This document shows positions 36,117-55,995 of a DNA stretch of 64,000 nucleotides, in pieces. The stretch spans positions 259,652 to 323,651 of the forward strand of contig CAILEP010000006.1 in NCBI GenBank assembly GCA_903833275.1, given 5' to 3'. How positions within the stretch are numbered: position 1 is the first letter of the stretch; every line of letters begins with the position of its first letter. This DNA comes from an uncultured Bdellovibrionales bacterium (GTDB lineage: Bacteria > Bdellovibrionota > Bdellovibrionia > Bdellovibrionales > UBA1609). Below the pieces are notes generated by a model, which saw only the letters and a list, made by a program, of their open reading frames with translations, did not search any database and was not told where the DNA came from. The position numbers and the translations under genes are program-made.

Positions 36117-36220
36117 CCAACTTCACGGCGCCCTCGGCAGCTTAAGTGCCAGGCGCTTTTGTGGATTCATTTTCAATTCTAAGTTCATTTCGTGTACAGG
36201 GCGGGCAAAACCCTAGTTAT

Positions 36221-36258: not shown

Positions 36259-36453
36259 GCCTAAACGGGCCTTGTCTAAGAAGCTGAAGGCTCGCGACTT
36301 TGACCTAGACCTTGGTCAGTGCACGGTGAGTAATCGTCGATTTGGCCATTCGCCAGCTCCACCGAGCTAAATAACGCACAGCAATATTAAAATAAATTTC
36401 AGCTGCAAATATGAGTGAAAACATTCACTAGACGTTTCGCGTTATAAAACACC

Positions 36454-36467
36454 TAGACCAAGGTCTA
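36454..36467. promoter_or_regulatory. palindromic candidate operator TAGACC-AA-GGTCTA abutting the -35 of the flagellin-2 promoter
   Basis: Perfect 6-bp inverted arms. A related copy lies at 36301-36318 (TGACCTAGACCTTGGTCA) and a half-site sits in the promoter spacer (36474-36480). Confidence 0.35.
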
Positions 36468-36492
36468 AAGTTACCTAGACCAAAGCCGAGAA
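36466..36492 (+). promoter_or_regulatory. sigma-28 promoter of flagellin 2 (predicts a leader of about 230 nt)
   Basis: TAAA-N15-GCCGAGAA, a 7/8 match to the -10 consensus. Confidence 0.65.
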
Positions 36493-36728
36493 GTTACATG
36501 AACACGTTGGAGCACTCTTAAGAGTTTCATTTCAGCAGTCACTGTAAATGATTCTTTTAGGAGCTTAGAAGGTAAGGGGCGCTCGCCCCTGGCCTCCCAA
36601 GTTACCTCCAACACTAAATTTTAACTCGGCAAGGATTGCCAACTACGAACCGGTTTATCAGGCATGGGGCTTGATGGATTTAACAGTAGTGTCGCGCAGG
36701 ATGCTTTGGTGTCTGTTGGAGGGCTACC

Positions 36729-37556
36729 ATGGGCTTAAGAATTAACACGAACATAGCGTCGATTTCGGCTCAACGCCAATTGTTCAAGAACGAAAATCGC
36801 TTAGAGCACGCACAAGAAGCTCTAGCGTCAGGTAAACGAATTATTAATGCATCAGACGATGCCGCTGGTCTTGCGATCAGTGAGAACATCCGCGGTCAAG
36901 TTGCCGGATTAAAGATGGCAAAGCAGAACGCGCTTAACGCACAATCTGTGATTCAAGTGAGTGAAGGCGGTTTGAACGAAATTTCAAACATCTTCATCCG
37001 CATCAGAGAGTTGGGTGTGCAAGCAGCGTCTGACACAGTTTCAGATGTTGAACGCGGGTTTATCAATACAGAAGGTAAACAATTAATCACAGAAGCGGAT
37101 CGTATCGCTAAGTCGACACGTTTCGGTAACAAACAGTTGTTAAATAACTCTGGCGAAGATATGGAGTTTCATGTCGGCCCGTTTGGCGGCGAAGAGAACA
37201 TCGTGAAAGCGACAATCTCTGCAGATGCGACGACCTCAACTCTTGGAATGGACAGCATCGACCTTTCAGATAAGGGCGGCGCTCGCGATGCACTTTCATC
37301 GGTTGATGAAGCATTGGTTAAGTTGAGTAAAATTCGCGCCGACTTCGGTGCCGTTCAAAGTCGATTGGTGTCAGTGAACTCGAACACAGACATTCAGTTC
37401 GAAAACTTGTCAGCAGCGCAATCACGAATTGCAGACGCCGACATCGCTTATGAGAGTGCAGAGGCAGCGTCAGCTCAAGTATTGCATAACGCCGCGATCT
37501 CGACACTTGCACAAGCCAACAACAATGGCATGTCAGCAATGAAGTTGATCAACTAA
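36729..37556 (+). CDS. fliC: flagellin (paralog 2, 275 aa)
   Basis: MGLRINTNIASISAQR, DDAAGLAISE, and C-terminal AQVLHNAAISTLAQANNNGMSAMKLI. Confidence 0.95.
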   Translation: MGLRINTNIASISAQRQLFKNENRLEHAQEALASGKRIINASDDAAGLAISENIRGQVAGLKMAKQNALNAQSVIQVSEGGLNEISNIFIRIRELGVQAASDTVSDVERGFINTEGKQLITEADRIAKSTRFGNKQLLNNSGEDMEFHVGPFGGEENIVKATISADATTSTLGMDSIDLSDKGGARDALSSVDEALVKLSKIRADFGAVQSRLVSVNSNTDIQFENLSAAQSRIADADIAYESAEAASAQVLHNAAISTLAQANNNGMSAMKLIN

Positions 37557-37686
37557 GGTCATTCGGCTTGGGCGCTCGTCGCCCAGGTCATGAATTGAAT
37601 CCTTAGGCTTCAGCTAACTATATTATTTTTAGAAAATTTTAGAGTGAGGGGTAGCCCACAGACATACATCCTCACTCTTGAGCCCG

Positions 37687-37718
37687 CCCTGGGGACCCCA
37701 CGCACCCCAGGGTTTTTT
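37687..37718 (+). terminator. intrinsic terminator after flagellin 2
   Basis: Stem CCCTGGGG / CCCCAGGG with a 10-nt loop, followed by TTTTTT. Confidence 0.7.
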
Positions 37719-37750
37719 AAAAGGTGCCAAGCACTTTTGGGTAGAAATTA

Positions 37751-37999
37751 TTACAGCTCCTCAAACTCTAAAGCCGATGTCCGGCGATCTTTTCTCATAG
37801 GTGCCAATCGAAATTCCGCTCGCTTCAAGGCACGGCGGACGTTTTGGATATTCTCAGCGTCAGGCATTTCGTTAATCCAACTTAGCGTATCTTCGATTTC
37901 GCCCATTAGCATTTGGTCCGCCTCAATTGGATTAATTAGGGGTGACTGGCCCAAAAGTTCCGCAAACGTACTGTACCGGTATTCTTCTGCGGTCGACAT
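37751..37999 (-). CDS. small acidic hypothetical protein (82 aa)
   Basis: ATG-initiated ORF 18 nt downstream of the preceding minus-strand ORF. No family recognised. Confidence 0.4.
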   Translation of the reverse strand: MSTAEEYRYSTFAELLGQSPLINPIEADQMLMGEIEDTLSWINEMPDAENIQNVRRALKRAEFRLAPMRKDRRTSALEFEEL

Positions 38000-38017
38000 G
38001 ATTCGCCAGGGCGCCTT

Positions 38018-38449
38018 TTACAACATCCCAATTATATTCGTGAGGCGCTTTGTTTTTTTGGTGAAGACGCTCGATGAGCCTAGGCACCCGGTTTTTGATT
38101 CGCGGTGATCTTTCTTTTCGAAGGTCACGCGCACGTACGATTTTGGGCAGGTCGAAATATCGGCATCGCCACTCTCGTCATAGATATCATTGAGGGCTCT
38201 GAGAAAAAACGCCTTGCTGTTGCTTTTCAGTTTCTGCGTGTGGCCTTTAGAAAAACTGGCTTGCTTGCTAATCAGTAGATCGCCCGGCCAGCGCATATAA
38301 TAGATCTTTCGTTTGCTTCCGTCTGCGACTTCAACTCGCGCCGCTTGAAACCTGTTTTCGAAACGAGAAACAAAGCTGCTCTTTTCGCCGGCGACCGCGG
38401 CCTGCGCAAAATAGAGAGCAATGATGAAAGAGAAAATTGGCTTAGTCAT
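38018..38449 (-). CDS. secreted hypothetical protein (143 aa)
   Basis: Clear signal peptide MTKPIFSFIIALYFAQAAVA. No family recognised. Confidence 0.55.
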   Translation of the reverse strand: MTKPIFSFIIALYFAQAAVAGEKSSFVSRFENRFQAARVEVADGSKRKIYYMRWPGDLLISKQASFSKGHTQKLKSNSKAFFLRALNDIYDESGDADISTCPKSYVRVTFEKKDHRESKTGCLGSSSVFTKKTKRLTNIIGML

Positions 38450-38844
38450 TTTTTTACTCCTTCGTTTTAGTAAGGTCTGACAGTCAAACGCAATTGCCGA
38501 CTCTCACTCTATTTTCACGCCAAAATCTATTGGCGACAATCAAATCATTCAAAAAGTGCGCGACATATATCTAGTAAGACTCGACTCGCGATAGAAAGTA
38601 GCCTCGACCGACACTACGTCTGTAGGCCCTCGGTCTATCAACTCTAAGTCTGATCGAACTTCGTCGAGCTCGACTCGACTTACAGCCAAATAAAACTTCA
38701 TCTTTCGTCGAGAAATTCTCGACCAACATCCTCCCCCAGACTCGCACTAAGACCAGATCGCTTCTATCGAAAGTCTAGATTCGCTCGACGCGACTTAAGA
38801 ATGTGCTGGCCTCGCCGAATGGTTTGGTACAAACGTCGATCAAT

Positions 38845-38872
38845 CAAAGGTCAGATGACCCTTGGTCGAGAA
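38845..38872 (+). promoter_or_regulatory. possible sigma-28 promoter of flagellin 3
   Basis: CAAA-N16-GTCGAGAA. This is weaker than the other three: imperfect -35, and a 6/8 match at -10. Confidence 0.4.
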
Positions 38873-38974
38873 AGATCGAGAAAAGTTAGCCCAGAAGGCT
38901 ATCGAGTTTGTTGCAGTCCAAGGGTGAAGGTGAGGAAGCCCTGTGGACAGTAAAACACATTTAAGGAGGCCAAA

Positions 38975-39808
38975 ATGGGCTTACGAGTAACGACAAATCT
39001 TCCATCCCTAGCAGCACAAAAAGAAATGGGTACAATCACCCGCGACTTGCAGAAGAGTTTTGCACAACTCTCTTCAGGCAGTCGAATTACCAAGGCCGCA
39101 GATGATGCAGCCGGCTTGTCTATGAGCGAAGTGTTGAAATCAACAATTCGCGGTTATCGCCAAGCGCATCGCAACGCTGAAGACGGCGTGTCGATGGTGC
39201 AAGTGGCTGAAGGTGGAATGAGCGAAATTTCGAACATGTTAGTGCGCATGCGTGAATTGGCGGTTCAAAGTGCATCTGACACTATTGCCGATCGCGAGCG
39301 TGGCTTTGTAGATTTAGAAGCTCAGCAACTTAAAAACGAAATTCAGCGTATCGCACAGACCACTAGATTCGGCTCAATCAAACTTCTTGATGGTTCAGGC
39401 GACAAATATGGCTTTCAAATTGATATTAACAATGACGACTTTAAAGATCGTATCAGTTTCGATGCCAGCAAAACAAATGTTCAACTTGGAGCACTCGGAA
39501 TTGACGGTATGGAGCTCGCCTCAAAAGACGGCGCTCATAACGCACTTGAAATTATCGAAGACGCACAGGTGAAATTGAACAGCAACCGCGCAAATTTGGG
39601 CGCAATGCAGAATCGTTTGATTTCAACTCAAGAGAACTTGTCGACATCAATCGAGAACTTCTCAGCTGCGAACTCGCGCATCCGTGACACAGACATTGCT
39701 GAATCTTCTGCGAACTTGGCTCGTGGGCAAGTTTTGCAACAAGCAACAGTTGGTGTAATGGCGCAAGCGAATCAGAGCACCGCAGTTGCACTGAAATTAA
39801 TTGCCTAA
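38975..39808 (+). CDS. fliC: flagellin (paralog 3, 277 aa)
   Basis: MGLRVTTNLPSLAAQK, DDAAGLSMSE, and C-terminal ARGQVLQQATVGVMAQANQSTAVALKLI. AAGGAGG RBS. Confidence 0.95.
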   Translation: MGLRVTTNLPSLAAQKEMGTITRDLQKSFAQLSSGSRITKAADDAAGLSMSEVLKSTIRGYRQAHRNAEDGVSMVQVAEGGMSEISNMLVRMRELAVQSASDTIADRERGFVDLEAQQLKNEIQRIAQTTRFGSIKLLDGSGDKYGFQIDINNDDFKDRISFDASKTNVQLGALGIDGMELASKDGAHNALEIIEDAQVKLNSNRANLGAMQNRLISTQENLSTSIENFSAANSRIRDTDIAESSANLARGQVLQQATVGVMAQANQSTAVALKLIA

Positions 39809-39898
39809 GCAATTAATTGAATAAGCGGCGCGATTTCTTATTATAGTGTTTTAAAGTTCGGGCGAAGTTGAGGTCTCGATTTCGCCTGACCTCACCCT

Positions 39899-39925
39899 CG
39901 AGGGGTTTTCTGGCCCCTCGTTTTT
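39899..39925 (+). terminator. intrinsic terminator after flagellin 3
   Basis: Stem CGAGGGG / CCCCTCG with an 8-nt loop, followed by TTTTT. Confidence 0.65.
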
Positions 39926-40129
39926 ACCGGGTGATTAATAGTATTGAGGCCCGATTGCGAATGGTTTTAACCAAAGGCGATCGATCCGATCGAAATCTAC
40001 TCGACGATAGTCCTGACTCATCAGGACCAAAATCCAAAAATGCCTTCAAAATACAAGACAAAGGTCGAGTTTGCGCGAGACCTACGTCTAGTTTACACGC
40101 GACTATGGTCCAGTTTAGCTGGACTCGAC

Positions 40130-40156
40130 TAAAGGTTGCCTCGACCTGGCCGAAGA
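40130..40156 (+). promoter_or_regulatory. sigma-28 promoter of flagellin 4 (predicts a leader of about 240 nt)
   Basis: TAAA-N15-GCCGAAGA. The spacer (GGTTGCCTCGACC) is alignable with the flagellin-2 promoter spacer (GTTACCTAGACC). Confidence 0.55.
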
Positions 40157-40397
40157 GAGGGTATCAACAACGAGCCATTCCTTAGTCCGGCTCACTGTAG
40201 AGAATCTCACGCGAGTGACTGCGCGAGAGGTTTTCGTAAGCACCTCGACGAAAGTCGGGCGCATAAAGGTGGAAGGACATAAAGAATAGCTCCAACGTGT
40301 TCAACCAATGCACTCGGATGGTGCGATTGCTCGGCGGTTTTGTAGGGAGACCGCTGAGCAAGTGAGAAGGATTCTCAACTAACCAAGGAGGCTCAAA

Positions 40398-41231
40398 ATG
40401 AGTTTACGAGTCGCAACAAACATTCCTTCAATAGCAGCGCAAAAGACGTTGGATAGCACCCAACGAGATATGGAAAAATCTTTTGCACAACTTTCATCTG
40501 GCAGCCGAATTACAAAGGCAGCGGATGATGCAGCCGGCTTGTCAATCAGCGAGACGTTGAAATCAACGATTCGCGGTTACGGCCAAGCCAAGCGAAACGC
40601 CAGTGATGCGATTTCGATGGTGCAGGTTTCGGAAGGTGGGCTTGGTGAAGTTTCGAACATCCTCTCACGCATGCGCGAGTTGGGCGTTCAAGCTGCATCT
40701 GATACTGTAGGCGATAAAGAACGTGGGTTCATCGACCTCGAAGTTCAGCAAATGAAAATGGAAGTGCAACGTATTGCACAGACCACACGCTTCGGTAGCG
40801 TAAAATTGCTCGACGGATCAGGTGGAAATTATCAGTTCCAAGTCGACATTAACAATGATGACTTTAACGATCGTATTACCTTCGATGCTGGCAAACAAAA
40901 CGTACAAACCGGCAACATTGGTATCGATAGTTTTGATTTTAACTCTAAAGATGGCGCACGAAGTGCACTAGATGTCTTAGAGACGGCGCAACAACAAGTG
41001 AATGGCCAGCGAGCTACGCTCGGCGCGATTCAGAATCGCTTGATCTCGACACAAGAGAATTTGAGTTCTTCGATTGAGAATTTCTCAGCCGCAAACTCTC
41101 GAATTCGCGACACAGACATTGCTGAGTCTTCAGCTAACTTGGCTCGTGGGCAAGTTCTGCAGCAAGCAACAATCAGCGTATTGGCTCAGGCAAATCAGAG
41201 CACAGCCGCTGCATTGAAACTGGTCGGTTAA
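40398..41231 (+). CDS. fliC: flagellin (paralog 4, 277 aa; close paralog of paralog 3)
   Basis: MSLRVATNIPSIAAQK. Shares long identical blocks with paralog 3 (KSFAQLSSGSRITKAADDAAGLS; SIENFSAANSRIRDTDIAESSANLARGQVLQQAT). Confidence 0.95.
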   Translation: MSLRVATNIPSIAAQKTLDSTQRDMEKSFAQLSSGSRITKAADDAAGLSISETLKSTIRGYGQAKRNASDAISMVQVSEGGLGEVSNILSRMRELGVQAASDTVGDKERGFIDLEVQQMKMEVQRIAQTTRFGSVKLLDGSGGNYQFQVDINNDDFNDRITFDAGKQNVQTGNIGIDSFDFNSKDGARSALDVLETAQQQVNGQRATLGAIQNRLISTQENLSSSIENFSAANSRIRDTDIAESSANLARGQVLQQATISVLAQANQSTAAALKLVG

Positions 41232-43803: not shown

Positions 43804-44247
43804 ATGAAGTCGTCAGAAACGCCCCAGACCGTCGTCGAATTATTATGTGAGAAAAATTTCTATCTTGAAAAATTCTATAGTTTAAATGAGAGCCAGCTTG
43901 AGTTTATCCAAGCCCACAGGTTTGAGGGGCTTGAAACCTTCTATCGCACCCGCGACGGGATTCTCGACATCATTCGAAAAATCGACGAATTGGTCGACAC
44001 CTCTTACGATATCCCCAAGAGTCTTGCGGATGTTGACCAGGTGATGAAGGGGCAAATTATTGAGTGCCTGCAAATTAAAAACAATTTGGTAGCAAAAATT
44101 CTCGAGCAAGACCTTCAAATTCTTTCGGCCATCGAAAGTGCGAAGTCTTTTGTAATCAAAGAACTCGCACAAGTGCGGGGCGCCCGAAAGGCGATTGGTG
44201 CCTATAAGTCGGGCCCGGCGAATAAACGCCTGGACGAAGAGGCATAA
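43804..44247 (+). CDS. helical hypothetical protein after fliS (possible FliT/FlgN-like chaperone)
   Basis: 147 aa, predicted all-helical, AGGAGAG RBS. It sits where fliT is often found. No motif-level identification. Confidence 0.55.
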   Translation: MKSSETPQTVVELLCEKNFYLEKFYSLNESQLEFIQAHRFEGLETFYRTRDGILDIIRKIDELVDTSYDIPKSLADVDQVMKGQIIECLQIKNNLVAKILEQDLQILSAIESAKSFVIKELAQVRGARKAIGAYKSGPANKRLDEEA

Positions 44248-44367: not shown

Positions 44368-44383
44368 TGGCACCCAAGTTGCT
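44368..44383 (+). promoter_or_regulatory. sigma-54 promoter of the TPR/GT9 operon
   Basis: TGGCAC-CCAAG-TTGCT with exact GG-N10-GC spacing, 30 nt upstream of the ATG at 44413. Confidence 0.75.
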
Positions 44384-44412
44384 CTAGATATCCTCGAACG
44401 AGGAGTCAAACT

Positions 44413-45540
44413 ATGTCTAGACCAGAGTCTGAACGCGAACCATCATTTCAAATTGCTAAAGAAGAGATCGCTTCACCAGAGCATTTTGCTCCTGGTCTTG
44501 CGGCGCGGCCGTTAAATCTTCGAAAGCAAACGATCGCCGAATTCGACCTCGAATTAAAGAGAGATTCGATACAACGCGAGAACAAGGCGAAATTCGACAT
44601 CCGCACGGGGTCTTCAGCCGAGCCCCAAAGTGTCGCGAACACCGAAATGGCTGAACATCTCGCCAATGCTCAGCTTTTAGTACGTGAAAGAGAATTTCAA
44701 GTAGCACAAAGTCTTTTTAGAGCCGCACTCAAAGTGGACCCTCGCAATGAAATTGCAATTCGCGGCATGGCCGAGTGTGCCCGCGAGCAACATCAGCACG
44801 AAGAGGCCATTCACGTGTTGAAAACGCTTGTGAGCGCTCACACCACCGCCGAAAACTACAAGCTACTCGCAGACGAATTATTTGCCCTTGAGTACAATCA
44901 AGACGCGCTCGAGGCCTATATGCGAGCTTTAACCGCTCCGGGCATCGATGAGTCGATGTTATTTGGCATATACAAAAATGTAGGCAACGTTCTATTGCGC
45001 CTCGGGGATGCCGACGGCGCTGAAGAGTATTACAACAAAGCTTACACGGTTGACCCTGATTCTGATGTTCTGCTGGTGAACTTTGGTTCGCTGGCACTTT
45101 ATCGGGGGCAGCTCGACAAAGCCTTGGCGCGATTTCGTGCGGCGGTTTCAATAAACGATAAAAACGATAAGGCGTGGGTCGGGCTGGCTATGATCCATCG
45201 CGAGTACGGCGATAGCGAACTCGCGTGGGCCAATGTTGAAAAGGCCCTCGATATATTGCCAGGCAATGAGTCGGGTATAAAACTTGTAGCGGAGTGGGCT
45301 TTAAAAGATAACGAAATCGAAAAAGCAATTCGTCGAATAGAGGCGTATTTGCAGGTCGACGTTGAAAACGCTCAAATGTCGATGTGGCTCGCAAAGTTCT
45401 ATTACTTTTCAAGTCGCCTCGAGCACGCACTAGTTGAAATTGAAAAGGCCCTCTATCTCAACCCTGAACTTGAAGGGGCCGAAGAAGTTTTAGGTGTGAT
45501 TCGCGCAGAAATCCAAGAACGAGAGGTTCGGGCGCAATGA
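44413..45540 (+). CDS. TPR-repeat protein
   Basis: About 100 aa of non-repeat N-terminus, then multiple 34-aa TPR-like units (AQSLFRAALKVDPRNEIA..., AEEYYNKAYTVDPDSD..., ALARFRAAVSINDKNDKA...). Confidence 0.8.
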   Translation: MSRPESEREPSFQIAKEEIASPEHFAPGLAARPLNLRKQTIAEFDLELKRDSIQRENKAKFDIRTGSSAEPQSVANTEMAEHLANAQLLVREREFQVAQSLFRAALKVDPRNEIAIRGMAECAREQHQHEEAIHVLKTLVSAHTTAENYKLLADELFALEYNQDALEAYMRALTAPGIDESMLFGIYKNVGNVLLRLGDADGAEEYYNKAYTVDPDSDVLLVNFGSLALYRGQLDKALARFRAAVSINDKNDKAWVGLAMIHREYGDSELAWANVEKALDILPGNESGIKLVAEWALKDNEIEKAIRRIEAYLQVDVENAQMSMWLAKFYYFSSRLEHALVEIEKALYLNPELEGAEEVLGVIRAEIQEREVRAQ

Positions 45541-46163
45541 TCGAACGGGTAAAAGCCAAGGATGGGCAAACTATTCTCAAATTGAACGGGCGACAAATTT
45601 GCACCTCGTTGAACCCATTGCGAGAGGCCCGAGATTGGGTCAAAAAGAATTCACGTCGGTTCGCCGAGATGAAAACAGTGATAGTAATCGGTGTGGGCTG
45701 CGGTTTTCATCTGGCAGAGATTCGCCGCCGCTTTGAAAACACAAAAATTGTCGCTCTTGATTTTAATCAAGAGCTGATAGACTTTTCTGCCGAAACACAC
45801 GGGCTTGATTTGGTTGGCGCGGAACTGATAAAAGTGGGTTCTGTGACCGAAGTGGCGAAGAATAGCACGATTCGGGCCGCAATCGCAGGTTCGTACGCGG
45901 TCGTGCGGTTTATGCCCTGCACGAACCAACAGCTTGAGCAATATAACGAACTAGAATGCACTATGCTTGGCCGAAACATTCTCGGCTTTAAAATGGTAGT
46001 GGGTGCGCGCGCGCGAATGGGCGAAATTTTTAACCCCAAAGTCAACATGGCCGCGATCACCTCGAACCCTACGGTGACAATTAAGAGTTTATTTGAGTCG
46101 CTCGGCCCTAATGAAACTTCTGAGAGTTTGATGGTCAGAGCACTCAGAGAGTTGGTCAATTGA
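45537..46163 (+). CDS. hypothetical protein resembling the N-terminal module of Maf (motility accessory factor) proteins
   Basis: LNGRQICTSLNPLREARDWVKKN...KTVIVIGVGCGFHLAEIRRRF...KIVALDFNQELIDF matches, from memory, the Maf N-terminal pattern. At 208 aa it is too short to hold the MptE-like catalytic domain. ATGA overlap with the TPR gene. Confidence 0.45.
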   Translation: MIERVKAKDGQTILKLNGRQICTSLNPLREARDWVKKNSRRFAEMKTVIVIGVGCGFHLAEIRRRFENTKIVALDFNQELIDFSAETHGLDLVGAELIKVGSVTEVAKNSTIRAAIAGSYAVVRFMPCTNQQLEQYNELECTMLGRNILGFKMVVGARARMGEIFNPKVNMAAITSNPTVTIKSLFESLGPNETSESLMVRALRELVN

Positions 46164-47836
46164 GAATTTTAGTTTTATCTCTTCTTAGATTGGGAGACAT
46201 TCTGCTTGCGGCCCCGGCCCTAGCTGGGCTGAGAGCAAAAAACCCCAAGGCTGAAATTCACATTGTGGTGAATCAGTCGTTTATCGCAGTTGCGTCTCTG
46301 TTGCCGATGGTCGACAAAGTGATTGGTTTTGACAGAGAGCTTTTGCAACAGGGCCTTGTTGAGGCCGATCGCGCGCTCTTTGAGCCATTCGATCGACTTC
46401 AATCTTTCGTTCAAGAGCTTAATTCAGCCAATTACGATCAGGTTATTAATCTAACCCAAAACCGATTTAGCGGATATTTAAGTGCACTCATTCATGCCGA
46501 AGATAAAGTTGGGATGTCTCTCAACAATAGAGGCCAGGCTAGCTTTGGCTCGACTTGGTTTCGTTATCTCAACAACATAGTGGGCGCGGGTGCTCGCACA
46601 ATTTTTCACTACTCAGATATTTTTCAATTCGGTGTTGGCATTTCAGTTGATAAGATGGCCGTAATCAAATTGAGCGAAACGGCGGCGGGCCGCGCCGAGT
46701 ACGAAGCCTGGCGGCGAGGGCACCCCTATACCAACGAAGCAAAAATTGTTTTGCAGTGTCAAACCAGCGATGACAAAAAGAATTGGCCCATTGAATCTTG
46801 GGTAAAAGCGCTTGAAGTGTTGGCATTGACTTATCCAAAAGCCGAATTGGTGGCTCTAGGCGCCCCATTTGAAAAAGCAAAAATAGACAAATTTGTCGAA
46901 GCGGCCGCAGCCAAGAAAGTACGAATTCTGCCGGCGTTCTTAAGTCTTGAGGGCGCACTAACGTTGATAAATGAGAGCGATTTGTTAGTGACTGGCGACA
47001 CAAGCATTAAACATTTAGCGGCGCTCTCGTCGACGCGAATAATCGAAATAGCACTTGGCAGCAGTGACCTTAGAAAAACGGGCGCCCTTAAGCCCGACTC
47101 AATTATTCTCTCATCGGCCGAGTCTTGCGCGCCGTGTTCGCACGAAGCGAAATGCTATCGTGATCGACACTACTGCGCAGAATCGCTAGCCCCAGAGTTG
47201 GTCGGGCTTGTGATTGGCCGCTATCTTCAAAAAGATTGGCAGGGGCTGCGACTTCTGGCTGACGAATACTCTGACACCTCTCGTATTCAACGATCGCGGC
47301 GTATGGTCAACGGCTTTTGGTACGCCGAAGACCTTCGTCAAGATCAGCTCAATCAACAAATTTCAGATAATCTTGATCGCGCCGCCTGGAAGTTTTTGCT
47401 CGAAAAAGAACATACGCGGCGCCTCGCCACTTACGGATCCGAAAGTATGAATCTCAAAAATTGGCTCGATAACTATCATTTAGTCGAAGATGGGTCGCGG
47501 CATCTTAAGATTTACCTCGAACAGATTGAGAATGCCACGTTGAGCAATGAAGAGCGCTTGAGCCGCTTGATCGACGACGTCACTCGACAGATGCGTACGG
47601 TCGGCACACTTTCTGAGTTAGATTTTATCGATCGATCAATGCTGAAAGAGATGGGCGAAATCGAAAAGGTTTTGGGTCTTGGTCATTACCTTACCGAAAA
47701 AACGCAAATTGAAAGAGACACCGGCCTGTTTCGAGCTCGACAGCTGCAGACCTCGCTAAATGAAGCCGCCCTCCACCAACAAATTAAACTTAAGTTAGTG
47801 AGAAGCCTAAAAAACATGATCCTGGAGTATCAATGA
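46160..47836 (+). CDS. glycosyltransferase family 9 (heptosyltransferase fold) with a helical C-terminal extension of about 215 aa
   Basis: MRILVLSLLRLGDILLAAPALAGLRAKNPKAEIHIVVN is a classic GT9 N-terminus. LVTGDTSIKHLAAL lies in the C-terminal Rossmann half. A Cys cluster CAPCSHEAKCYRDRHYC and then a coiled-coil-like tail follow. Confidence 0.8.
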   Translation: MRILVLSLLRLGDILLAAPALAGLRAKNPKAEIHIVVNQSFIAVASLLPMVDKVIGFDRELLQQGLVEADRALFEPFDRLQSFVQELNSANYDQVINLTQNRFSGYLSALIHAEDKVGMSLNNRGQASFGSTWFRYLNNIVGAGARTIFHYSDIFQFGVGISVDKMAVIKLSETAAGRAEYEAWRRGHPYTNEAKIVLQCQTSDDKKNWPIESWVKALEVLALTYPKAELVALGAPFEKAKIDKFVEAAAAKKVRILPAFLSLEGALTLINESDLLVTGDTSIKHLAALSSTRIIEIALGSSDLRKTGALKPDSIILSSAESCAPCSHEAKCYRDRHYCAESLAPELVGLVIGRYLQKDWQGLRLLADEYSDTSRIQRSRRMVNGFWYAEDLRQDQLNQQISDNLDRAAWKFLLEKEHTRRLATYGSESMNLKNWLDNYHLVEDGSRHLKIYLEQIENATLSNEERLSRLIDDVTRQMRTVGTLSELDFIDRSMLKEMGEIEKVLGLGHYLTEKTQIERDTGLFRARQLQTSLNEAALHQQIKLKLVRSLKNMILEYQ

Positions 47837-48021
47837 GCCGAGAAGAATTGGAGACCCACCTAAGTGAGTCCTTAGAAAAGTTAGAGGCGGCAACCGAGCG
47901 CATGGCGAAAACACAGGGCTATGTGGTTGCGGAAACAAAAAAGATGAGAATGCTGATCGAGCTTGTGAAGGAGCAACTGCGCAATGAACATACTTTGTCT
48001 TCAGCTAGCCCGGTTCGGTGA
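47833..48021 (+). CDS. small helical hypothetical protein (62 aa)
   Basis: The ATG overlaps the upstream stop (ATGA). The last 38 nt overlap the next GT9 gene in another frame. Helical, charged composition. Confidence 0.35.
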   Translation: MSREELETHLSESLEKLEAATERMAKTQGYVVAETKKMRMLIELVKEQLRNEHTLSSASPVR

Positions 48022-49459
48022 CGTCTACCAAACTTGGCCGGTGTTAAACGCCCTAAGGCGAACGCACCCGACGGCGAATATCCATCTTGTTGTGCGCGAA
48101 AGATTTTCGGGCGCGACGGTGGGCCTGTCTGCGGTAAATAAAATTGTAACACTTCCGACAGAATTTATCTTGCGGCCACTGATCTCGGGGCACGCTCGTG
48201 TTGAATCCTCACTTCAGAATCTGAATGCTTGGCTCAAAGAATTACAGGGCACTCGTTATGACCAAATTATTAATTTGTCGTTTTCGCCAGTTTCGAGTTA
48301 CCTCACAGATATTCTAGCGGGCCCCGAAACTGAGATCCGTGGATACTCGCGCTTTTCGGATGGCTTTCTCAATATCGTCGATGATGCCAGCAGCTATTTC
48401 TACGCGCAGGTGGGTATTGATAGAAGCAATCGCATACACCTTACCGATCTTTTTGGCCTCGTCGCGGGGGTTGAGCTTTGCGATGGCGATTTCGCGACTG
48501 AAGCGAGTTTATTGCCCGACGCCTTGGCGACCCAGTTGCCGAAGTGCGAATATGTAGTTGTGCACTTGGGCGCTAGCGACAAGAATAAAACCTGTTCGAT
48601 CGAAAAGTGGGGCGAAGTAATTGAGCGAGTGCTAGAGGTTTGGGCCGGTGCCGTTGTTTTGATTGGCTCTGCAGAAGACAACAGGGGGTCAGCGCGAATT
48701 TCAAATCGGGCTCGAGTTATTGATTTAACCGGGCAGACAAATCTAGCCGAACTTTTTTCGGTCATTCGTGGCGCAGCAGCACTTATCGGCGGGGACAGCG
48801 TCGCCCTTCATATAGGTTCGCTAACAAAAACCGCGACGCTCAATGTTTCTTTTGCGGCCGTTAGATTTTGGGAGACCGGCCCGCGCGCCAAAGGCAGCCG
48901 CGTTCTTTGGTTTGACGACCCGAGTGCGGCCGATGCGGCCCGCATCGCGCGAGAGTTAATTGCAATGTTGCAAAAGACTCGTACCGGGCATCCAATAATT
49001 TTAAAAGAAGAAGACTTTGGCGTTCTTTACTCGCTTGTCGGTTACGAAGAAGAAGATTTCGCATGGAGCTTGACTCGCGCGCTCTACATGTCGAGCGCCT
49101 TTCCGACGACAACTTCGTCTTCAACAATTTTGGCGTTTCAACGGCTCACTGAATTGGGTCAGCTTGGCGTTGAGCAAATTCGTTCGATTGAAAAAGGTAA
49201 AGACAATAAGTTGGCCACCAGTATTCTTGATCAAATCGACGATCTCGTCGAACAGGTCGGTAAGCTTTCAGAAGACGTTGCGCCGGCAGTACGGTGGTTT
49301 CGCGCTGAGAAAACGCGCATTGGCCCTGGTGAAATCGAGGGCATTCTACAGTCAACAGAAAGACTTTTTTCGAAGTTGCGTGATATTGGGCAACTTTATT
49401 CAATCAATCAGAAGCTGAACGATAATCTTAACCGAGAGAATCTGACATGGAAGTCATAA
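47984..49459 (+). CDS. glycosyltransferase family 9 (heptosyltransferase fold) with a helical C-terminal extension of about 160 aa
   Basis: MNILCLQLARFGDVYQTWPVLNALRRTHPTANIHLVVR GT9 N-terminus and LIGGDSVALHIGS motif. The tail shares blocks with the first GT9 tail (DFAWSL / AAWKFL; VEQIRSIE / LEQIENAT). Confidence 0.8.
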   Translation: MNILCLQLARFGDVYQTWPVLNALRRTHPTANIHLVVRERFSGATVGLSAVNKIVTLPTEFILRPLISGHARVESSLQNLNAWLKELQGTRYDQIINLSFSPVSSYLTDILAGPETEIRGYSRFSDGFLNIVDDASSYFYAQVGIDRSNRIHLTDLFGLVAGVELCDGDFATEASLLPDALATQLPKCEYVVVHLGASDKNKTCSIEKWGEVIERVLEVWAGAVVLIGSAEDNRGSARISNRARVIDLTGQTNLAELFSVIRGAAALIGGDSVALHIGSLTKTATLNVSFAAVRFWETGPRAKGSRVLWFDDPSAADAARIARELIAMLQKTRTGHPIILKEEDFGVLYSLVGYEEEDFAWSLTRALYMSSAFPTTTSSSTILAFQRLTELGQLGVEQIRSIEKGKDNKLATSILDQIDDLVEQVGKLSEDVAPAVRWFRAEKTRIGPGEIEGILQSTERLFSKLRDIGQLYSINQKLNDNLNRENLTWKS

Positions 49460-50055
49460 AAATTAGTAAGACGGCGATTGCCACGGATTTCACTCAATGC
49501 AATAGCCTAAAAGAAATAATTGCCAAGCTCGAAGACCAGCTCAGCCAAAAAGGCCGTGTTATTTGCCGAGTTCATGTCAACGGCATGCCCCTGACCGAAG
49601 ATGACGAGCAGAGATTTGCCGAATCGAAACTTGCAGAAATCTCAGATATCGAAGTTGAATCTGAAGAGATTGAGCATTTGGTTGCGAGTTCGATGAAGTC
49701 ATTGGTTTCGTTTATAGAAGAGTTAAAGGAAGACTGCGTTCAAACGGCAGAAAAAATTCGCGCCAGTAAATCACCAAAAAATGAAAATCTGGTGAGCGGT
49801 GTTTTTAAAAATGTTCAGTGGATTATTTCTGCCCTTCAGGCGCTGCGGCCGCAGCTAGACCCGGTTGCAGACGATTTTGCCGAGCGCTGGCTGACCAACG
49901 AAACCCACATGGTGCACACGGCTCGAGAATTGGCGGCGGCAGTCGATAGTGATGACTATATGCTGCTGGCGGATGTTTTAGAGTACGAACTCTATAACTC
50001 CCTAGACAAATGGCGAGAGACGTTGCGCCTCTACCCTACAGCCGCATTGACTTAG
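49447..50055 (+). CDS. hypothetical protein (202 aa)
   Basis: 13-nt overlap with the preceding gene. Acidic, helical, no recognisable family. Confidence 0.55.
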   Translation: MEVIKISKTAIATDFTQCNSLKEIIAKLEDQLSQKGRVICRVHVNGMPLTEDDEQRFAESKLAEISDIEVESEEIEHLVASSMKSLVSFIEELKEDCVQTAEKIRASKSPKNENLVSGVFKNVQWIISALQALRPQLDPVADDFAERWLTNETHMVHTARELAAAVDSDDYMLLADVLEYELYNSLDKWRETLRLYPTAALT

Positions 50056-50082: not shown

Positions 50083-51951
50083 GTGAAAGATGAAACAGCC
50101 CAAGGGCTAAGCGCACTTATCAAAGGCAAAAAAGAAATTCTCTGGCTGGGCAGTGACGATATCAGGGTCACGGCCATGCTGGGGTCTGATAAAAACCGAG
50201 CTCGCTTTGCCACCATTAGTCAGTTTAAAAAACTAAAAATATCAGACGAAATATCGTTGGTGGTGGTGGTGCCGGGGCAGCTCGAGTTTGATAAGCGTGC
50301 CATTGAAAAATTGAAGAGAGTCGGTGCCAAGAAGATTCTCATTGTCTCGGATCACGCGCCGAAAGAGTCATTGGCCGAAGTGCTTGCGCAGGTTAGTTTT
50401 GCTAAGATTATTTTTGAAAACAATTTACGAGCAGAATTGAATTTGGCCATCGAAGAGACCAGGCGAGGGCAGGGCCCCGAAGAGAGCGACGCCTCAGTGC
50501 CGCGCACGAAGGCCATGGTTTCGTTTATCAAAAATTTGTCGGCGGCATTGACCATTCAAGAGGTTCTAAAAACTCTTCGTGAAGAGCTGCGTAATTTTCA
50601 GGCGGTAAAAGAGCCGCTTCTGGCTTTTGTAAACGCCCAAAACGAGTTGGCGGTGATGTTCTTTCAGGGGCATCAAATTTTAGAACGAAAAATTCAAGAG
50701 CCGTGGCCACAAAGGCCTCAGGTGCGGCTTAATGACCTCAAGGATAGTCAGTATTTAGCTAATATTTTCGGTCGTCCATTTGCAAAATTATTATCGATAC
50801 CGCTTCGGCTGCGGTATCTTTCGACAGAGCATAGTCTTAAAGTGGGTGCCGTTTTGTTTTTTGAGCACGGCCTAAGCGAAATTGAGGCCAATGATTTCTT
50901 ACAATCAATTGAAGAGCGTCTTGAGCCGTTGGGTTTAGCGCTTGATCGCCTTTTGGTCGAACAGTATTTGAAGGACGTGTCGCGCTTGTGGGAGCGTACC
51001 TTTGATGGCCTCAAAGACCCAGTGGCGATATTCGATGCTGACAGTCAGATTCTTCGCGCCAATCGCGCCTTTGCCGAGAACCTAATCGATGTTCGAAGTG
51101 CTGACCTGATGAGCGATAAATTACGGCACCGTGATCATGATTACGAAGTGCAGTCTTACCCAATTACGTTTGGGCTATCGGCGCGGCCGACCAATATCAT
51201 CAATCACTATGTTGATGTGACTATTTCGAATCGCCTCAAGAAGCAAATGATTCAAAACGAAAAGATGGCGGCCTTGGGCCATCTGGCCGGCAATATCGCG
51301 CACGAATTGAACAATCCACTGACGGGGGTCAGGTCTCTGGCTCAAATTCTAATCACTCAGGTTAAGCCGGGCACAACGCTCTCAAATGATTTGACAGAAG
51401 TCGAAAAGGCCTCAGAGCGTTGTCAGGAAGTCATTCAAAACCTGCTCGAGTTCTCGTCGGGTGGTTACGAAAAGCACCAACAGTATATTTCTCTGCGCGC
51501 TGTCGTGCAAAAGACTCTGCCTTTGATAAAAACACTCACCAGCCGTTTCGAAGTCAACTCCGACTTTTTTTCGGGTGACGATAAAGTCTTTGTCGAGCCT
51601 CGCCTGCTTCAGCACGTTGTTTTTAATTTGATAAAAAACGCTTGCGAGTCAATGGGCGATAAAGGTTTGCTCGATATTCGAACCAAAATTCAGGTAGAAA
51701 AAATGAATAACTACGCCGTCTTGTCGGTGCGCGACACCGGTGTTGGTATCGACCCCATTGTTCAGAAACAAATTTTCGATTTCTTCTATACAACGAAAAA
51801 AGAGGGTCAGGGCACGGGTTTAGGTTTGAGTATGAGTAAAACCATTGTTGAAAGATTTGGCGGCGTCATCAAGCTTGAGAGCGCAGTGGGGGCGGGCAGC
51901 GAGTTTCAGATCTGGTTGCCATTGGGTAACTCAGGCGAGCTGCCATCATGA
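50083..51951 (+). CDS. cytoplasmic sensor histidine kinase (unknown N-domain + PAS + HisKA + HATPase)
   Basis: H-box AALGHLAGNIAHELNNPLTG, N-box NLIKNACES, G-boxes RDTGVGI and GTGLGLS, and a PAS-like WERTFDGLKDPVAIFD. No TM segments seen. Confidence 0.85.
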   Translation: MKDETAQGLSALIKGKKEILWLGSDDIRVTAMLGSDKNRARFATISQFKKLKISDEISLVVVVPGQLEFDKRAIEKLKRVGAKKILIVSDHAPKESLAEVLAQVSFAKIIFENNLRAELNLAIEETRRGQGPEESDASVPRTKAMVSFIKNLSAALTIQEVLKTLREELRNFQAVKEPLLAFVNAQNELAVMFFQGHQILERKIQEPWPQRPQVRLNDLKDSQYLANIFGRPFAKLLSIPLRLRYLSTEHSLKVGAVLFFEHGLSEIEANDFLQSIEERLEPLGLALDRLLVEQYLKDVSRLWERTFDGLKDPVAIFDADSQILRANRAFAENLIDVRSADLMSDKLRHRDHDYEVQSYPITFGLSARPTNIINHYVDVTISNRLKKQMIQNEKMAALGHLAGNIAHELNNPLTGVRSLAQILITQVKPGTTLSNDLTEVEKASERCQEVIQNLLEFSSGGYEKHQQYISLRAVVQKTLPLIKTLTSRFEVNSDFFSGDDKVFVEPRLLQHVVFNLIKNACESMGDKGLLDIRTKIQVEKMNNYAVLSVRDTGVGIDPIVQKQIFDFFYTTKKEGQGTGLGLSMSKTIVERFGGVIKLESAVGAGSEFQIWLPLGNSGELPS

Positions 51952-52310
51952 GGGCTTTGATTGTTGACGATGAAGACTTGATCAGAACGTCATTAAAGCG
52001 CGTATTTGAAATGCGGCATCATGAAGTGTTTGTCGCTGAAAATGGCCAGCAAGGCCTCGAAATGTGGCAGGCGCATGACCCCGAATTGGTCATTTTGGAT
52101 ATGTTGATGCCTGGCCTAACCGGCGCCCAGGTTCTGAAGAAAATCGGCGCGCAAACCCGCTCAAAGGTCATCTTGATCTCCGCCTACACGGGCGAATATG
52201 ACGTAAAGAAGGCTTCGGAGCTTGGCGCGACGCTTTTTATCGCCAAACCGTTTCAAAATATTTTCGATGTTGTTGATCGCGCCGAGAAATTGGTCGAGAA
52301 TGGCAAGTAG
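51948..52310 (+). CDS. single-domain response regulator (CheY-like receiver)
   Basis: ALIVDDE, the phospho-acceptor context LVILDMLMPGLTG, and KPF. ATGA overlap with the kinase gene. Confidence 0.9.
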   Translation: MRALIVDDEDLIRTSLKRVFEMRHHEVFVAENGQQGLEMWQAHDPELVILDMLMPGLTGAQVLKKIGAQTRSKVILISAYTGEYDVKKASELGATLFIAKPFQNIFDVVDRAEKLVENGK

Positions 52311-52327
52311 TGAATTTTTGAGGTCAT

Positions 52328-52696
52328 ATGATCGACGATCCTTTGCCCATATCTTTAGACAGCGGGACAGAGAAAATCTCTGGCTTTATCGTTAAGATTA
52401 GCCAGACCGGTATGCTTGTTGAGTTAGAGAAGACTACATTCAAGATTGGCGCCTATTTTACCGCGACCTTTGAGTTTAAGCCAGGCCGCCCCCTTAATGA
52501 ACGAGTTCGCTCGATCAAGCACTACGATAAATTTTTTCGCAAAACTCCTAAAAAGAAATTAAAAGAAGGCGAAGCCGCACCCGTGCCGAAGCGCCTGGCC
52601 GAATTTCATTTTCATTTGCCAACTGAAAGAACAAAAACGCAAATCACAAAATTTCTACTGCGCGCTCAGCGTGATAGCGAAATCAGAAAGAGATGA
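52328..52696 (+). CDS. PilZ-like small protein (degenerate c-di-GMP motifs)
   Basis: ISGFIVKISQTGMLVELE resembles the PilZ (D/N)xSxxG strand context. No N-terminal RxxxR motif. Lys-rich C-terminal part. Confidence 0.4.
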   Translation: MIDDPLPISLDSGTEKISGFIVKISQTGMLVELEKTTFKIGAYFTATFEFKPGRPLNERVRSIKHYDKFFRKTPKKKLKEGEAAPVPKRLAEFHFHLPTERTKTQITKFLLRAQRDSEIRKR

Positions 52697-53777: not shown

Positions 53778-54967
53778 TTTCCGAACGCGCAAAAAGTTTA
53801 AAGCCGTCACCAACACTGGCCTTGGCGGCTAAAGCCAAAGAACTTGCGGCCCTTGGGCATGATGTGATTTCGCTTTCAGTCGGCGAGCCCGACTGGGACA
53901 CTTTTGAGTGCGCGAAACGCGCCGGCATTGAGGCGATTCAAAAAGGGTTTTCAAAGTACACTCCAGCCAATGGGATTGTTGAATTAAGAAAAGCGATCGC
54001 CGCGCAAACGTCTAAAGATTTGGGATTAAACTTTACGCCCGACGAAGTGACGGTCTCGACGGGTGGTAAGTTCGTTATTTTTTCGGCACTCCAGATGGTG
54101 TTGGACCCAGGTGACGAGGTCATTATCCCTGCGCCTTATTGGGTGAGCTACCCCGTGATGGTTGAGCTTGCTGGCGGCAAAGCTAAAATTGCGGTCTGTG
54201 ACGAGACCGTCAATTTCAAGTTAACTCCTGAAATTTTGCGAAACAGTATTACGCCTAAAACAAAGGTTTTAATTCTTAACAGCCCAAGTAACCCGACGGG
54301 GTTGGCTTATACTCGCGAAGAACTGGCGGCATTGGCAAAAGTGCTCACTGACTTTCCGAAAGTTTTGATTTTGTCGGATGATATTTACAATCGATTATTC
54401 TTTGCGGCGCCCTTAGCGCCACATATTTTGCATGTGGCGCCTGAGTTGCGACCGCGCACGTTGGTCATGAACGGCGCCTCTAAAACTTACGCAATGACAG
54501 GCTGGCGAGTGGGCTGGGCCCTCGGGCCACTCGAATGGGTTAAGGCCATGTCGAATTATCAATCGCAATCTGTTAGCCAAGCCGCGACGATGTCGCAATG
54601 GGCGACAATCCGAGCCATTGAAGATGGTGCCTCTGAGTTGAGAACTTCGCTTGGTGAATTAAAAACTCGTCGCGATCGCGGTCTTGAAATGCTGCGGGCG
54701 ATACCGGGCATGAGTGTTTCGACGCCAGATGGGGCTTTCTATTTTTGGCCGAACGTTCGGGCCTTTCTTGGTCGCCAATTTCAGGGTGCCACTCTCAACA
54801 CCGCGAGCGATTTTTCAAATGCACTTCTTAATACGCAAAAGGTCGCTGTTGTGCCAGGCATCGAGTTTGGTCTCGAGGGTTATGTTCGCCTGAGCTTTGC
54901 GCTCAAAGAGCAACGGATGGCCCAGGCATTTGAGCGCATCAGATTATTTGTAAGCCAGATCACCTAA
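53774..54967 (+). CDS. PLP-dependent aminotransferase class I (aspartate aminotransferase-like)
   Basis: SVGEPD, LNSPSNPTG, SKTYAMTGWRVGW (PLP Lys) and VRLSFA motifs. Confidence 0.9.
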   Translation: MISERAKSLKPSPTLALAAKAKELAALGHDVISLSVGEPDWDTFECAKRAGIEAIQKGFSKYTPANGIVELRKAIAAQTSKDLGLNFTPDEVTVSTGGKFVIFSALQMVLDPGDEVIIPAPYWVSYPVMVELAGGKAKIAVCDETVNFKLTPEILRNSITPKTKVLILNSPSNPTGLAYTREELAALAKVLTDFPKVLILSDDIYNRLFFAAPLAPHILHVAPELRPRTLVMNGASKTYAMTGWRVGWALGPLEWVKAMSNYQSQSVSQAATMSQWATIRAIEDGASELRTSLGELKTRRDRGLEMLRAIPGMSVSTPDGAFYFWPNVRAFLGRQFQGATLNTASDFSNALLNTQKVAVVPGIEFGLEGYVRLSFALKEQRMAQAFERIRLFVSQIT

Positions 54968-55041: not shown

Positions 55042-55995
55042 ATGTCTATATGGATTCTTGCCGCCATCGTGGTTCAAATATTTATGTTTCTCTCAATCGC
55101 TATTTTGTGGGTTCGCCAATCGCGACCCGCAAAAGAAGACCCCCGCTTGAGCCGCGGGCTTCAGTTGCTACAAAGCAAGATAGCGGTTCTCGAAGATCTT
55201 TCTGATCGCACCGAAACTCAAGTGCGTCAGTTGACTCAAATTCTTGAAGAGCGGGCTCGCGCGCTGCAAACCAAAATTCTTAATGCAGAAGAAATGATCA
55301 TTAAGATCGAGCATTCAATGCGAAAAAGTCTCGACGTCGCCGAAATTTTTCAAGATAAAATCCCGCACGAAGAAATTATCGGGCGCAATCAAACTCAGAA
55401 GTACGTGACAGCTGCAAAGCTGGCTCACGAAGGTCTTTCGATCGATGAAATCGTCGCTCAGGTAGGCTTGCCACGCAGCGAAGTTGAATTTATTTCGAAG
55501 GTAAATCGTGAAGAGCTGACCTTCGACCCGGCCCTTTTGCCTGAGTGGGCAAAGCCGCGCGAAGACTCGCAGGCGATGACTGAATCAAGAATGGACTCAA
55601 TGTCGGCCCCGGCGTCAATGCGCCAAAACGCCGCAACTCAAGCGGTTGAGCAAGTGTTTCAACCCAAAGTAACGGACCTCAGTTCGTTGCATCGAATAGA
55701 AGAAGATTTTAAGCAGAGCGTACGCCAAGCTGAAGATTTTGAGAGAAGAGAGGCTGAGAAGTTTCGCCAAGCCGAAGAGCGGCTCAATGCGCTTAAGAAA
55801 ACGGCAACACGCATGACACAAAACCTGGTGACGTCGGCAGAGTCAATAGTACGGCATTCGGGTGAAGTTATTAAAACGGCAGCCGAGCGCGCCGGCGAGA
55901 AAATGGTTGAGCGAGCGAATGAGCGAGCGGCGGATCGTTCGGCGGCGTCAAGAAATGGGCCGATTGTTCGTAAGGTTGAGTTTCCGAGAATTTAA
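55042..55995 (+). CDS. membrane-anchored coiled-coil protein with an HTH-like segment
   Basis: N-terminal TM, long charged helices, and AAKLAHEGLSIDEIVAQVGLPRSEVEFISKVNR, which resembles the DUF2802-type motif seen in some flagellar loci (from memory). Confidence 0.55.
   Translation: MSIWILAAIVVQIFMFLSIAILWVRQSRPAKEDPRLSRGLQLLQSKIAVLEDLSDRTETQVRQLTQILEERARALQTKILNAEEMIIKIEHSMRKSLDVAEIFQDKIPHEEIIGRNQTQKYVTAAKLAHEGLSIDEIVAQVGLPRSEVEFISKVNREELTFDPALLPEWAKPREDSQAMTESRMDSMSAPASMRQNAATQAVEQVFQPKVTDLSSLHRIEEDFKQSVRQAEDFERREAEKFRQAEERLNALKKTATRMTQNLVTSAESIVRHSGEVIKTAAERAGEKMVERANERAADRSAASRNGPIVRKVEFPRI

Follow-up and report, generated by a model that had tools for sequence, protein, structure and literature searches.

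A cassette of six packed open reading frames (ORFs), located behind flaG, fliD, fliS and an ORF for a FliT-like helical protein, was analyzed in a 64,000-nucleotide stretch (here called the window) of contig CAILEP010000006.1 from an uncultured Bdellovibrionales bacterium (assembly GCA_903833275.1). The cassette encodes a tetratricopeptide repeat (TPR) protein, a small Rossmann protein (p208), two members of glycosyltransferase family 9 (GT9a and GT9b) and two further small proteins (p62 and p202). The reading that we tentatively favor is that these genes specify a cytoplasmic glycosylation module, particular to the Bdellovibrionota and belonging to the sigma-54 flagellar regulon, which acts on flagellin or another exported flagellar protein by a logic like that of Maf and FlmG but built on GT9 enzymes. 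To our knowledge, the flagellin glycosylation enzymes characterized so far are Maf proteins, FlmG/OGT-like enzymes or GT2/Fgt enzymes, and autotransporters (TibC/AAH) are the only proteins for which heptosylation is known. A flagellar glycosylation system based on GT9 has yet to be characterized; such a system, if real, would constitute a third route, would extend protein heptosylation beyond autotransporters and would mean that the modular logic of Maf and FlmG had been rebuilt on a different catalytic fold. The cassette was conserved in every recovered Bdellovibrionota locus with enough flank, including that of the genetically tractable predator Bdellovibrio bacteriovorus.

A conserved cassette behind a sigma-54-type promoter motif

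All six overlapping ORFs that a first-pass annotation had described after fliS and the helical ORF were located on the + strand (Table 1), with overlaps between successive genes, from the TPR gene to p202, of 4, 4, 4, 38 and 13 nt. The ORFs are headed by the promoter TGGCACccaagTTGCT at 44368-44383, which has GG at -24, GC at -12 and the spacing of TGGCAC-N5-TTGC(A/T) and lies 5′ of the operon; this element (TGGCACCCAAGTTGCT) ends 30 nt 5′ of the ATG of the TPR gene. An exact TGGCAC-N5-TTGC occurred only once in the window, at 44368, while TGGCAY-N5-TTGCT occurred exactly twice, at 44368 and at 16925 before flgF, compared with an expectation of 0.03 for shuffled windows (0 of 100 shuffles reached two matches). 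The second match precedes the rod operon (17006-21507), whose genes were confirmed as flgF, flgG, flgA, flgH and flgI. In related loci, TGGCA[C/T]-N5-TTGC (nearly always TTGCT) was present between the FliT-like and TPR genes in 70 of 72 cases while the N5 spacer varied freely, indicating that the promoter is a phylogenetic footprint and not a chance match. Both the near-consensus sigma-54 promoter before the cassette and the use of the same promoter class by the rod operon, as originally annotated, were thereby upheld. On this sequence evidence, the cassette is under a putative sigma-54 promoter of the flagellar-regulon class that is common to it and the rod operon. No + strand terminator-like site with at least 8 stem pairs was detected between 44.2 and 53.3 kb; strong bidirectional terminators were located 3′ of the last two flagellin genes.

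A set of 5.8 billion proteins contained 99 homologs of GT9a, of which the best was 62% identical, and the organism names given for them were all Bdellovibrionales or Bdellovibrionaceae. When each GTDB species was scanned through a single genome, 129 relatives were recovered; nearly all of the best 80 were labeled Bdellovibrionota (Bdellovibrionales, Pseudobdellovibrionaceae or Bdellovibrio), with two carrying generic Proteobacteria/Pseudomonadota titles, and three B. bacteriovorus strains were included among these 80. Related loci (n = 85) were fetched, and gene order was judged wherever the flank sufficed. The order fliC-flaG-fliD-fliS-FliT-like-TPR-p208-GT9a-p62-GT9b-p202-histidine kinase-response regulator-(PilZ-like)-rsmD-coaD was found in essentially all of these loci, down to 30% identity for GT9a. 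Orthologs of the TPR protein were present in 81 loci and the FliT-like gene was syntenic in 74, while in one locus (L076) p208 was missed by BLAST, yet a right-sized ORF was in place. The linkage with flagellar genes first noted for the window hence extends to its relatives, fliD and fliS being linked to the cassette in every related locus with enough flank.

The order of accessions in B. bacteriovorus HD100 places the cassette, by inference, between Bd0613 and the histidine kinase Bd0620 and makes Bd0615 the probable p208 ortholog. A proteome time course of HD100 assigned Bd0615 to one temporal cluster with FliS, Bd0613 and Bd0627, the last being the HD100 ortholog of a DUF2802 protein encoded at 55042-55995 of the window; if Bd0615 is indeed the p208 ortholog, p208 is therefore expressed alongside filament-stage proteins. 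Searches of the literature for the HD100 tags Bd0613-Bd0622, for TP0873/DUF8042 and for heptose in Bdellovibrio lipopolysaccharide (LPS) found nothing specific.

Two paralogous GT9 enzymes with C-terminal tails

Both enzymes matched the Pfam family Glyco_transf_9 (PF01075) above its cutoff of 22 bits, GT9a with 67.7 bits (E = 1.3e-18) and GT9b with 49.7 bits (E = 4e-13), and their cores are paralogous (hhalign probability of 100%; E = 4.6e-49). GT9a consists of a GT-B core (residues 1-344) and a tail (residues 345-558; nt 47192-47833) made up of a beta-hairpin and long helices; in GT9b, a core of residues 1 to ~317 is followed by a tail of ~174 aa. Solved GT9 enzymes have only 326-349 aa (the WaaC and WaaF chains, of 326-348 aa, aligned to the core only), indicating that the 214-aa tail of GT9a and the ~174-aa tail of GT9b are real extensions. 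The pair of paralogous GT9 enzymes with extra tails was, therefore, correctly recognized in the first-pass annotation. Comparison of the two tails by hhalign, with each other and with p62, p202, the FliT-like protein and FliS, detected no homology.

An alignment of GT9a with Escherichia coli WaaC extended over residues 1-290 (E = 3e-9). Among 24 family members with 23-62% identity, D13, K207, D280-T281 and H285 of GT9a were invariant; K207 is equivalent to Lys192 of WaaC and D280-T281...H285 to D261-T262...H266. For GT9b, D13, K202 and D271-S272 were conserved in at least 90-95% of 76 sequences, and G12-D13 was near-invariant. Roles of WaaC Asp13, Lys192 and Asp261 in catalysis and donor binding are established. 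The WaaC residues for catalysis and ADP-heptose binding are retained by both GT9 paralogues.

Structure was modeled with AlphaFold2 for GT9a only of the pair (pLDDT, 89.6; pTM, 0.89), the fold of GT9b being taken from the homology of its core to that of GT9a. The GT9a model showed, besides the GT-B core, a Cys-rich loop with little order, a beta-hairpin (residues 374-391) and long helices reaching residue 557. A Foldseek search with this model placed 3TOV (E = 1e-13; TMt, 0.77-0.80) in the top ranks, together with WaaC and WaaF (E of ~1e-12, up to 5e-12). The matches that came next after the bacterial GT9 enzymes were chains of the chloroplast NDH-PSI supercomplex (9grx_1, 7wff_a and 7f9o_6), which we take to be a GT9-like fold serving as a structural subunit.

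These chloroplast matches, a sign that a GT9 fold can be nonenzymatic, would fit an alternative in which the GT9 folds join the kinase, the REC-only regulator and the PilZ-like protein encoded 3′ of the cassette in a complex for flagellar assembly or regulation, serving there as scaffolds or as sensors of nucleotide sugars and glycosylating no product. The lack of a terminator before this regulatory set, which is syntenic everywhere, points in the same direction, and the formation of a complex is also suggested by the size of the helical tails and by the small helical partner proteins. However, the catalytic base and donor-binding residues are invariant or nearly so across ~75-78 orthologs at 30-60% identity, a degree of conservation that is hard to explain without catalysis, and a noncatalytic role is considered improbable.

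The Cys-rich loop of GT9a contains a Cys4 knuckle, C323-x2-C326-x6-C333-x5-C339 (nt 47126-47176), that was kept in 73 of 77 orthologs; a corresponding cluster was present in 0 of 75 GT9b orthologs. Scores against the NCBIfam models for heptosyltransferases I, II and III (TIGR02193, TIGR02195 and TIGR02201; equivalog cutoffs of 185.3, 134.6 and 170.2 bits, respectively) were 76.2, 44.4 and 52.6 bits for GT9a and 69.4, 23.1 and 40.3 bits for GT9b, all below the cutoffs. The net charge of the acceptor (N-) lobe, a crude proxy for which E. coli WaaC was the single reference enzyme, was +9.1 for WaaC residues 1-165 versus family medians of -1.9 for GT9a and -5.1 for GT9b. The lipid A of Bdellovibrio is unusually neutral, which weakens this charge argument. 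The HD100 proteome contains other GT9 proteins, namely, Bd1504 (heptosyltransferase II) and Bd2366 (heptosyltransferase) (PMC12546842 supplement).

WaaC (HepI), WaaF (HepII) and the Veillonella protein 3TOV are the best matches of the cassette enzymes by sequence and by Foldseek and have in common with them the GT-B fold, the Glyco_transf_9 family and equivalents of Asp13, Lys192 and Asp261-Thr262-His266. The cassette enzymes differ from WaaC and WaaF in having 174-214 aa of additional C-terminal sequence (the tails, modeled as helical for GT9a), in the Cys4 knuckle of GT9a, in NCBIfam scores below the cutoffs, in acidic or neutral lobes as opposed to the +9 of WaaC and in their sigma-54 promoter and filament locus. 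Membership of GT9, the rank of WaaC and WaaF as best Protein Data Bank (PDB) matches and the presence of housekeeping genes in the same synteny block would be expected if these were ordinary WaaC/WaaF equivalents for the LPS inner core that lie beside flagellar genes by chance. Such a role is unlikely given the low equivalog scores, the acidic or neutral acceptor lobes and the separate Bd1504 and Bd2366 proteins of HD100, in keeping with the departure from WaaC/WaaF that had been proposed initially. In addition, solved WaaC and WaaF chains showed neither such tails nor the Cys4 knuckle of GT9a, and essential envelope genes would not be expected to have a conserved sigma-54 promoter in common with the rod operon; a housekeeping function is, in our estimate, very improbable.

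Partner proteins and comparison with known glycosylation systems

The TPR protein matched several Pfam TPR families (E values down to 1.6e-19) and consists of a disordered N terminus of ~75 aa followed by TPR repeats, with no hydrophobic segment and a net charge of -19.7. Among natural PDB entries, OGT and SPINDLY, both protein O-glycosyltransferases, gave the best matches through their TPR domains, which may be a mere effect of near-consensus repeats. In the most divergent lineage (GT9a at 30% identity), an extra ORF of 348-392 aa without a family match was located between the FliT-like and TPR genes (L004, 7290-8336; L005, 2421-3599).

The p208 protein has two conserved motifs, G..L.S..DP..EA..W and VxVLGxGxGYH. 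The first-pass annotation had likened p208 to the N-terminal module of Maf flagellin glycosyltransferases. This likeness recurred in the family, Pfam Maf_flag10_N (PF20157) matching 18 of 41 orthologs at E values of ≤0.01 (best, 4.9e-6; profile positions ~110-150 only), but the window copy was below the cutoff of 23.5 bits (15.8 bits; E = 0.01), and none of the individually listed orthologs reached it, one of them falling just short (23.4 bits). Methyltransf_25 matched 10 of the 41 orthologs. An AlphaFold2 model of p208 built from a shallow alignment (pLDDT, 86.4) began with beta-hairpins, followed by half of a Rossmann fold with four strands and by a helical C terminus, and a Foldseek search with it detected spermidine synthases and class I methyltransferases (TM, ~0.49). 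From sequence and model, p208 would resemble the Maf N-terminal module, with no GT domain, and would be too truncated for an ordinary methyltransferase. The GxGxG loop was kept, and strand 2 recurrently ended in an acidic residue in the displayed orthologs; we infer that p208 could still bind an adenosine-containing ligand. Homolog searches recovered 2 proteins with the single sequence and 12 with a 41-sequence profile; p208 evolves fast and cannot be followed by a word-index search. In the divergent lineage mentioned above, p208 was cut to 142 aa with the loss of most of the helical C-terminal part (L004, 9576-10004; L005, 4839-5267).

No family match was found for p62 in Pfam or NCBIfam, and orthologs of 47-68 aa occupied the same position in at least 52 loci. 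Orthologs of p202 had precomputed Pfam matches to PF26154 (DUF8042) and a weak match to PF27299 (TP0873_N); the p202 family comprised 500 clusters at 50% identity (E ≤ 1e-3), and a p202 profile detected only designed helical bundles and noise in the PDB and Pfam. TP0873_N takes its name from a Treponema pallidum protein, one encoded beside fliD (TP0872). If TP0873 does adjoin fliD, DUF8042 proteins could be a filament-associated factor common to these bacteria and spirochetes. Signal peptides and transmembrane-like segments were absent from all six cassette proteins.

Three types of protein glycosylation systems can be compared with the cassette. FlmG, the flagellin O-glycosyltransferase of Caulobacter, is a cytoplasmic protein with a TPR domain and a GT-B domain that is under the control of the flagellar hierarchy (PMC7591256). 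As compared by description, TPR and GT-B modules occur in both systems, but in the cassette the TPR protein has its own gene and the catalytic domain, of the GT9 type, is present twice; the sugar of FlmG is pseudaminic acid, whereas that of the cassette would probably be heptose. The catalytic domain of Maf proteins is flanked by an N-terminal domain and a C-terminal coiled-coil domain (PMC7988653). Likenesses to Maf systems are the recurrent, below-cutoff match of p208 to the Maf N-terminal profile, the long helices of the tail in the GT9a model, which recall the Maf coiled coil, and the location beside flagellin and fliS genes. None of the six cassette proteins had a Pfam match to the Maf catalytic domain, MAF_flag10 (PF01973), and the cassette differs from Maf systems in the absence of nonulosonic-acid synthesis genes.

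The third type, the TibC/AAH (BAHT) enzymes, consists of GT9-related GT-B proteins that transfer heptose from ADP-heptose to Ser residues of proteins in the cytoplasm (PMC4358343). A Cys4 metal knuckle is inserted toward the end of their C-lobe (Cys339/342/358/370 in TibC; PMC4358343); this iron finger and dodecameric assembly characterize the family. The GT9a cluster is at a comparable position but with a different spacing, GT9b has no cluster and the N-terminal beta-barrel of TibC was not seen in the GT9a model. No autotransporter gene was found beside the cassette, the neighbors being flagellar genes, a histidine kinase and a response regulator. The Cys4 cluster was considered as a mark of TibC-like ancestry and rejected on the grounds of its spacing and the absence of TibC similarity; similar Cys motifs occur in other GT9 enzymes. 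A further precedent is variable region 1 of the flag-2 locus of Enterobacterales, which contains genes GT9-1 to GT9-5 that were predicted, without experiment, to glycosylate flagellin (PMC6993521). These genes belong to another phylum and another flagellar system, and no tails and no TPR or Maf-N-like partners are described for them (again as compared by description). The claim that no GT9 flagellar module is characterized stands, but the idea of GT9 in a flagellar locus is not unprecedented, having been noted by comparative genomics for flag-2 (PMC6993521).

Under the favored reading, GT9a and GT9b would both be active inverting GT-B transferases, most likely using as donor the ADP-heptose already made for LPS. 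The acceptor would be not Kdo-lipid A but a substrate of flagellar type III export, most likely flagellin, that is modified in the cytoplasm prior to export. The TPR protein may be an adaptor, split off into its own gene, that binds the substrate in the manner of FlmG or OGT, while p208 would take the role of the Maf N-terminal domain and the helical GT9 tails that of the Maf C-terminal coiled coil; with these two roles so assigned, the module would be Maf-like in logic but with a GT9 catalytic core. The p62 and p202 proteins could be accessory or assembly partners, and the two paralogues could provide for two sequential sugars or two acceptor classes. A more specific proposal sees the cassette as the first GT9-based machine for flagellar protein glycosylation: all predators of the Bdellovibrionales type would use two tailed GT9 heptosyltransferases, a TPR adaptor and a free Maf-N-like domain for the cytoplasmic O-heptosylation of flagellin or of some other axial or export substrate; in this complete form the proposal is rather unlikely.

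Several observations weigh against modification of a flagellar protein, in addition to the crudeness of the charge proxy and the neutrality of Bdellovibrio lipid A noted above. The closest relatives of GT9a and GT9b by sequence and structure are LPS-type GT9 enzymes. TibC was not matched at E values of ≤10 in a PDB profile search and was absent from the Foldseek top 50 obtained with GT9a; the tie to the protein-heptosylating TibC/AAH branch drawn in the first-pass annotation was consequently not supported. The similarity of p208 to Maf is below the cutoff and mainly confined to the Rossmann stretch with the GxGxG motif; when p208 was searched as a profile against the PDB, only weak methyltransferase matches resulted, and the Maf structure 5MU5 was absent from these and from the Foldseek top 50. 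Linkage to fliD and fliS constitutes weak functional evidence, as the relatives are all from one phylum and synteny runs on into rsmD and coaD; it could reflect inherited gene order and not a common function. No report of a glycosylated Bdellovibrio flagellin was found in the open literature, and reported flagellin masses of ~28-29.5 kDa are close to the predicted masses.

Alternatively, the GT9 pair could modify a special LPS core or other glycolipid bound for the membranous flagellar sheath, the sugar added being heptose or a related one. Coexpression with basal-body genes would then time the supply of sheath lipid with growth, and the TPR protein, p208 and the tails would localize the enzymes at the flagellated pole. 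The LPS heptosyltransferases 3TOV, WaaC and WaaF are closest by sequence and fold, the promoter motif in common with the rod operon is consistent with timing alongside rod and ring genes, and the absence of dedicated sugar synthesis genes from the cassette fits a shared ADP-heptose pool. Moreover, Bdellovibrio flagella are sheathed and the LPS composition of the sheath is unlike that of the cell (Thomashow and Rittenberg 1985, summarized in PMC7175336), although the reported sheath differences are in fatty acids and not in sugars (PMC7175336). Against this, the acceptor lobes are not basic but acidic or neutral, the scores are far below the equivalog cutoffs for LPS heptosyltransferases, and TPR, Maf-N-like and coiled-coil accessories typify protein-modifying rather than core-LPS glycosyltransferases. 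On balance, sheath lipid synthesis was judged to be the main rival explanation but an unlikely function. Biogenesis of the flagellar sheath is an open question (PMC7175336); if this explanation were true, the cassette would contain the first genes tied to making of the sheath.

Heptose supply and neighboring genes

The organism had been held to make ADP-heptose on the strength of a heptose-1-phosphate adenylyltransferase gene. The HldC-type product of this gene (30395-30862) scored 212.6 bits against an NCBIfam cutoff of 181.5 bits, so that this enzyme is at least encoded. HD100 enzymes of the ADP-heptose pathway are Bd3536 and Bd0720 (PMC12546842 supplement). The possibility that the HldC-like gene at 30395 represented a heptose pathway dedicated to the cassette was rejected, its neighbors being prmA, rsmE and genes for an RDD protein and an outer membrane beta-barrel protein.

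Table 1. Genes and promoter motifs of the cassette region and its surroundings (positions within the window)
Feature	Coordinates	Strand	Description
FliT-like helical ORF	43804-44247	+	147 aa; 5′ of the sigma-54 promoter
TPR protein	44413-45540	+	375 aa; candidate substrate/partner adaptor
p208	45537-46163	+	208 aa; small Rossmann protein, Maf-N-like or truncated class I methyltransferase
GT9a	46160-47836	+	558 aa; TTG start; Pfam Glyco_transf_9
p62	47833-48021	+	62 aa; conserved small protein, probably helical
GT9b	47984-49459	+	491 aa; paralogous GT-B core plus unrelated tail
p202	49447-50055	+	202 aa; DUF8042 type, very acidic
Sigma-54-type -24/-12 promoter, TGGCAC-N5-TTGCT	44368-44383	+	Motif match
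Second copy of promoter motif	16925-16940	+	Precedes flgF/flgG rod operon
Histidine kinase, cytoplasmic	50083-51951	+	622 aa; PAS, HisKA and HATPase_c by Pfam; possibly cotranscribed with the cassette
REC-only response regulator	51948-52310	+	120 aa; Response_reg from precomputed matches on orthologs; possibly cotranscribed

The FliT-like ORF, which follows flaG, fliD and fliS on the 5′ side of the cassette, matched Pfam FliT below the cutoff both in the window (E = 8.4e-5) and in an ortholog from locus L002 (E = 5.2e-5). On the 3′ side, the kinase and regulator genes are followed by a gene for a weakly PilZ-like protein of 122 aa, the whole set (50083-52696) being syntenic in related loci; in the L002 lineage, the histidine kinase has gained an N-terminal REC domain. 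The kinase, the REC-only regulator and the PilZ-like protein may be on the same sigma-54 transcript as the cassette and regulate motility.

The window contains four flagellin paralogues of ~275-277 aa (35208-41231) that are without D2/D3 domains, and no obvious conserved Ser/Thr-rich patch was apparent when these four were aligned. A FliW gene is present at 26608-27135 and a weakly FlgT_C-like ORF at 27246-27806. Another near-consensus sigma-54 site, TGGCGCctgagTTGC, was detected at 54435-54449 in the 3′ part of an aminotransferase gene, ~600 nt 5′ of a DUF2802 gene (55042-55995).

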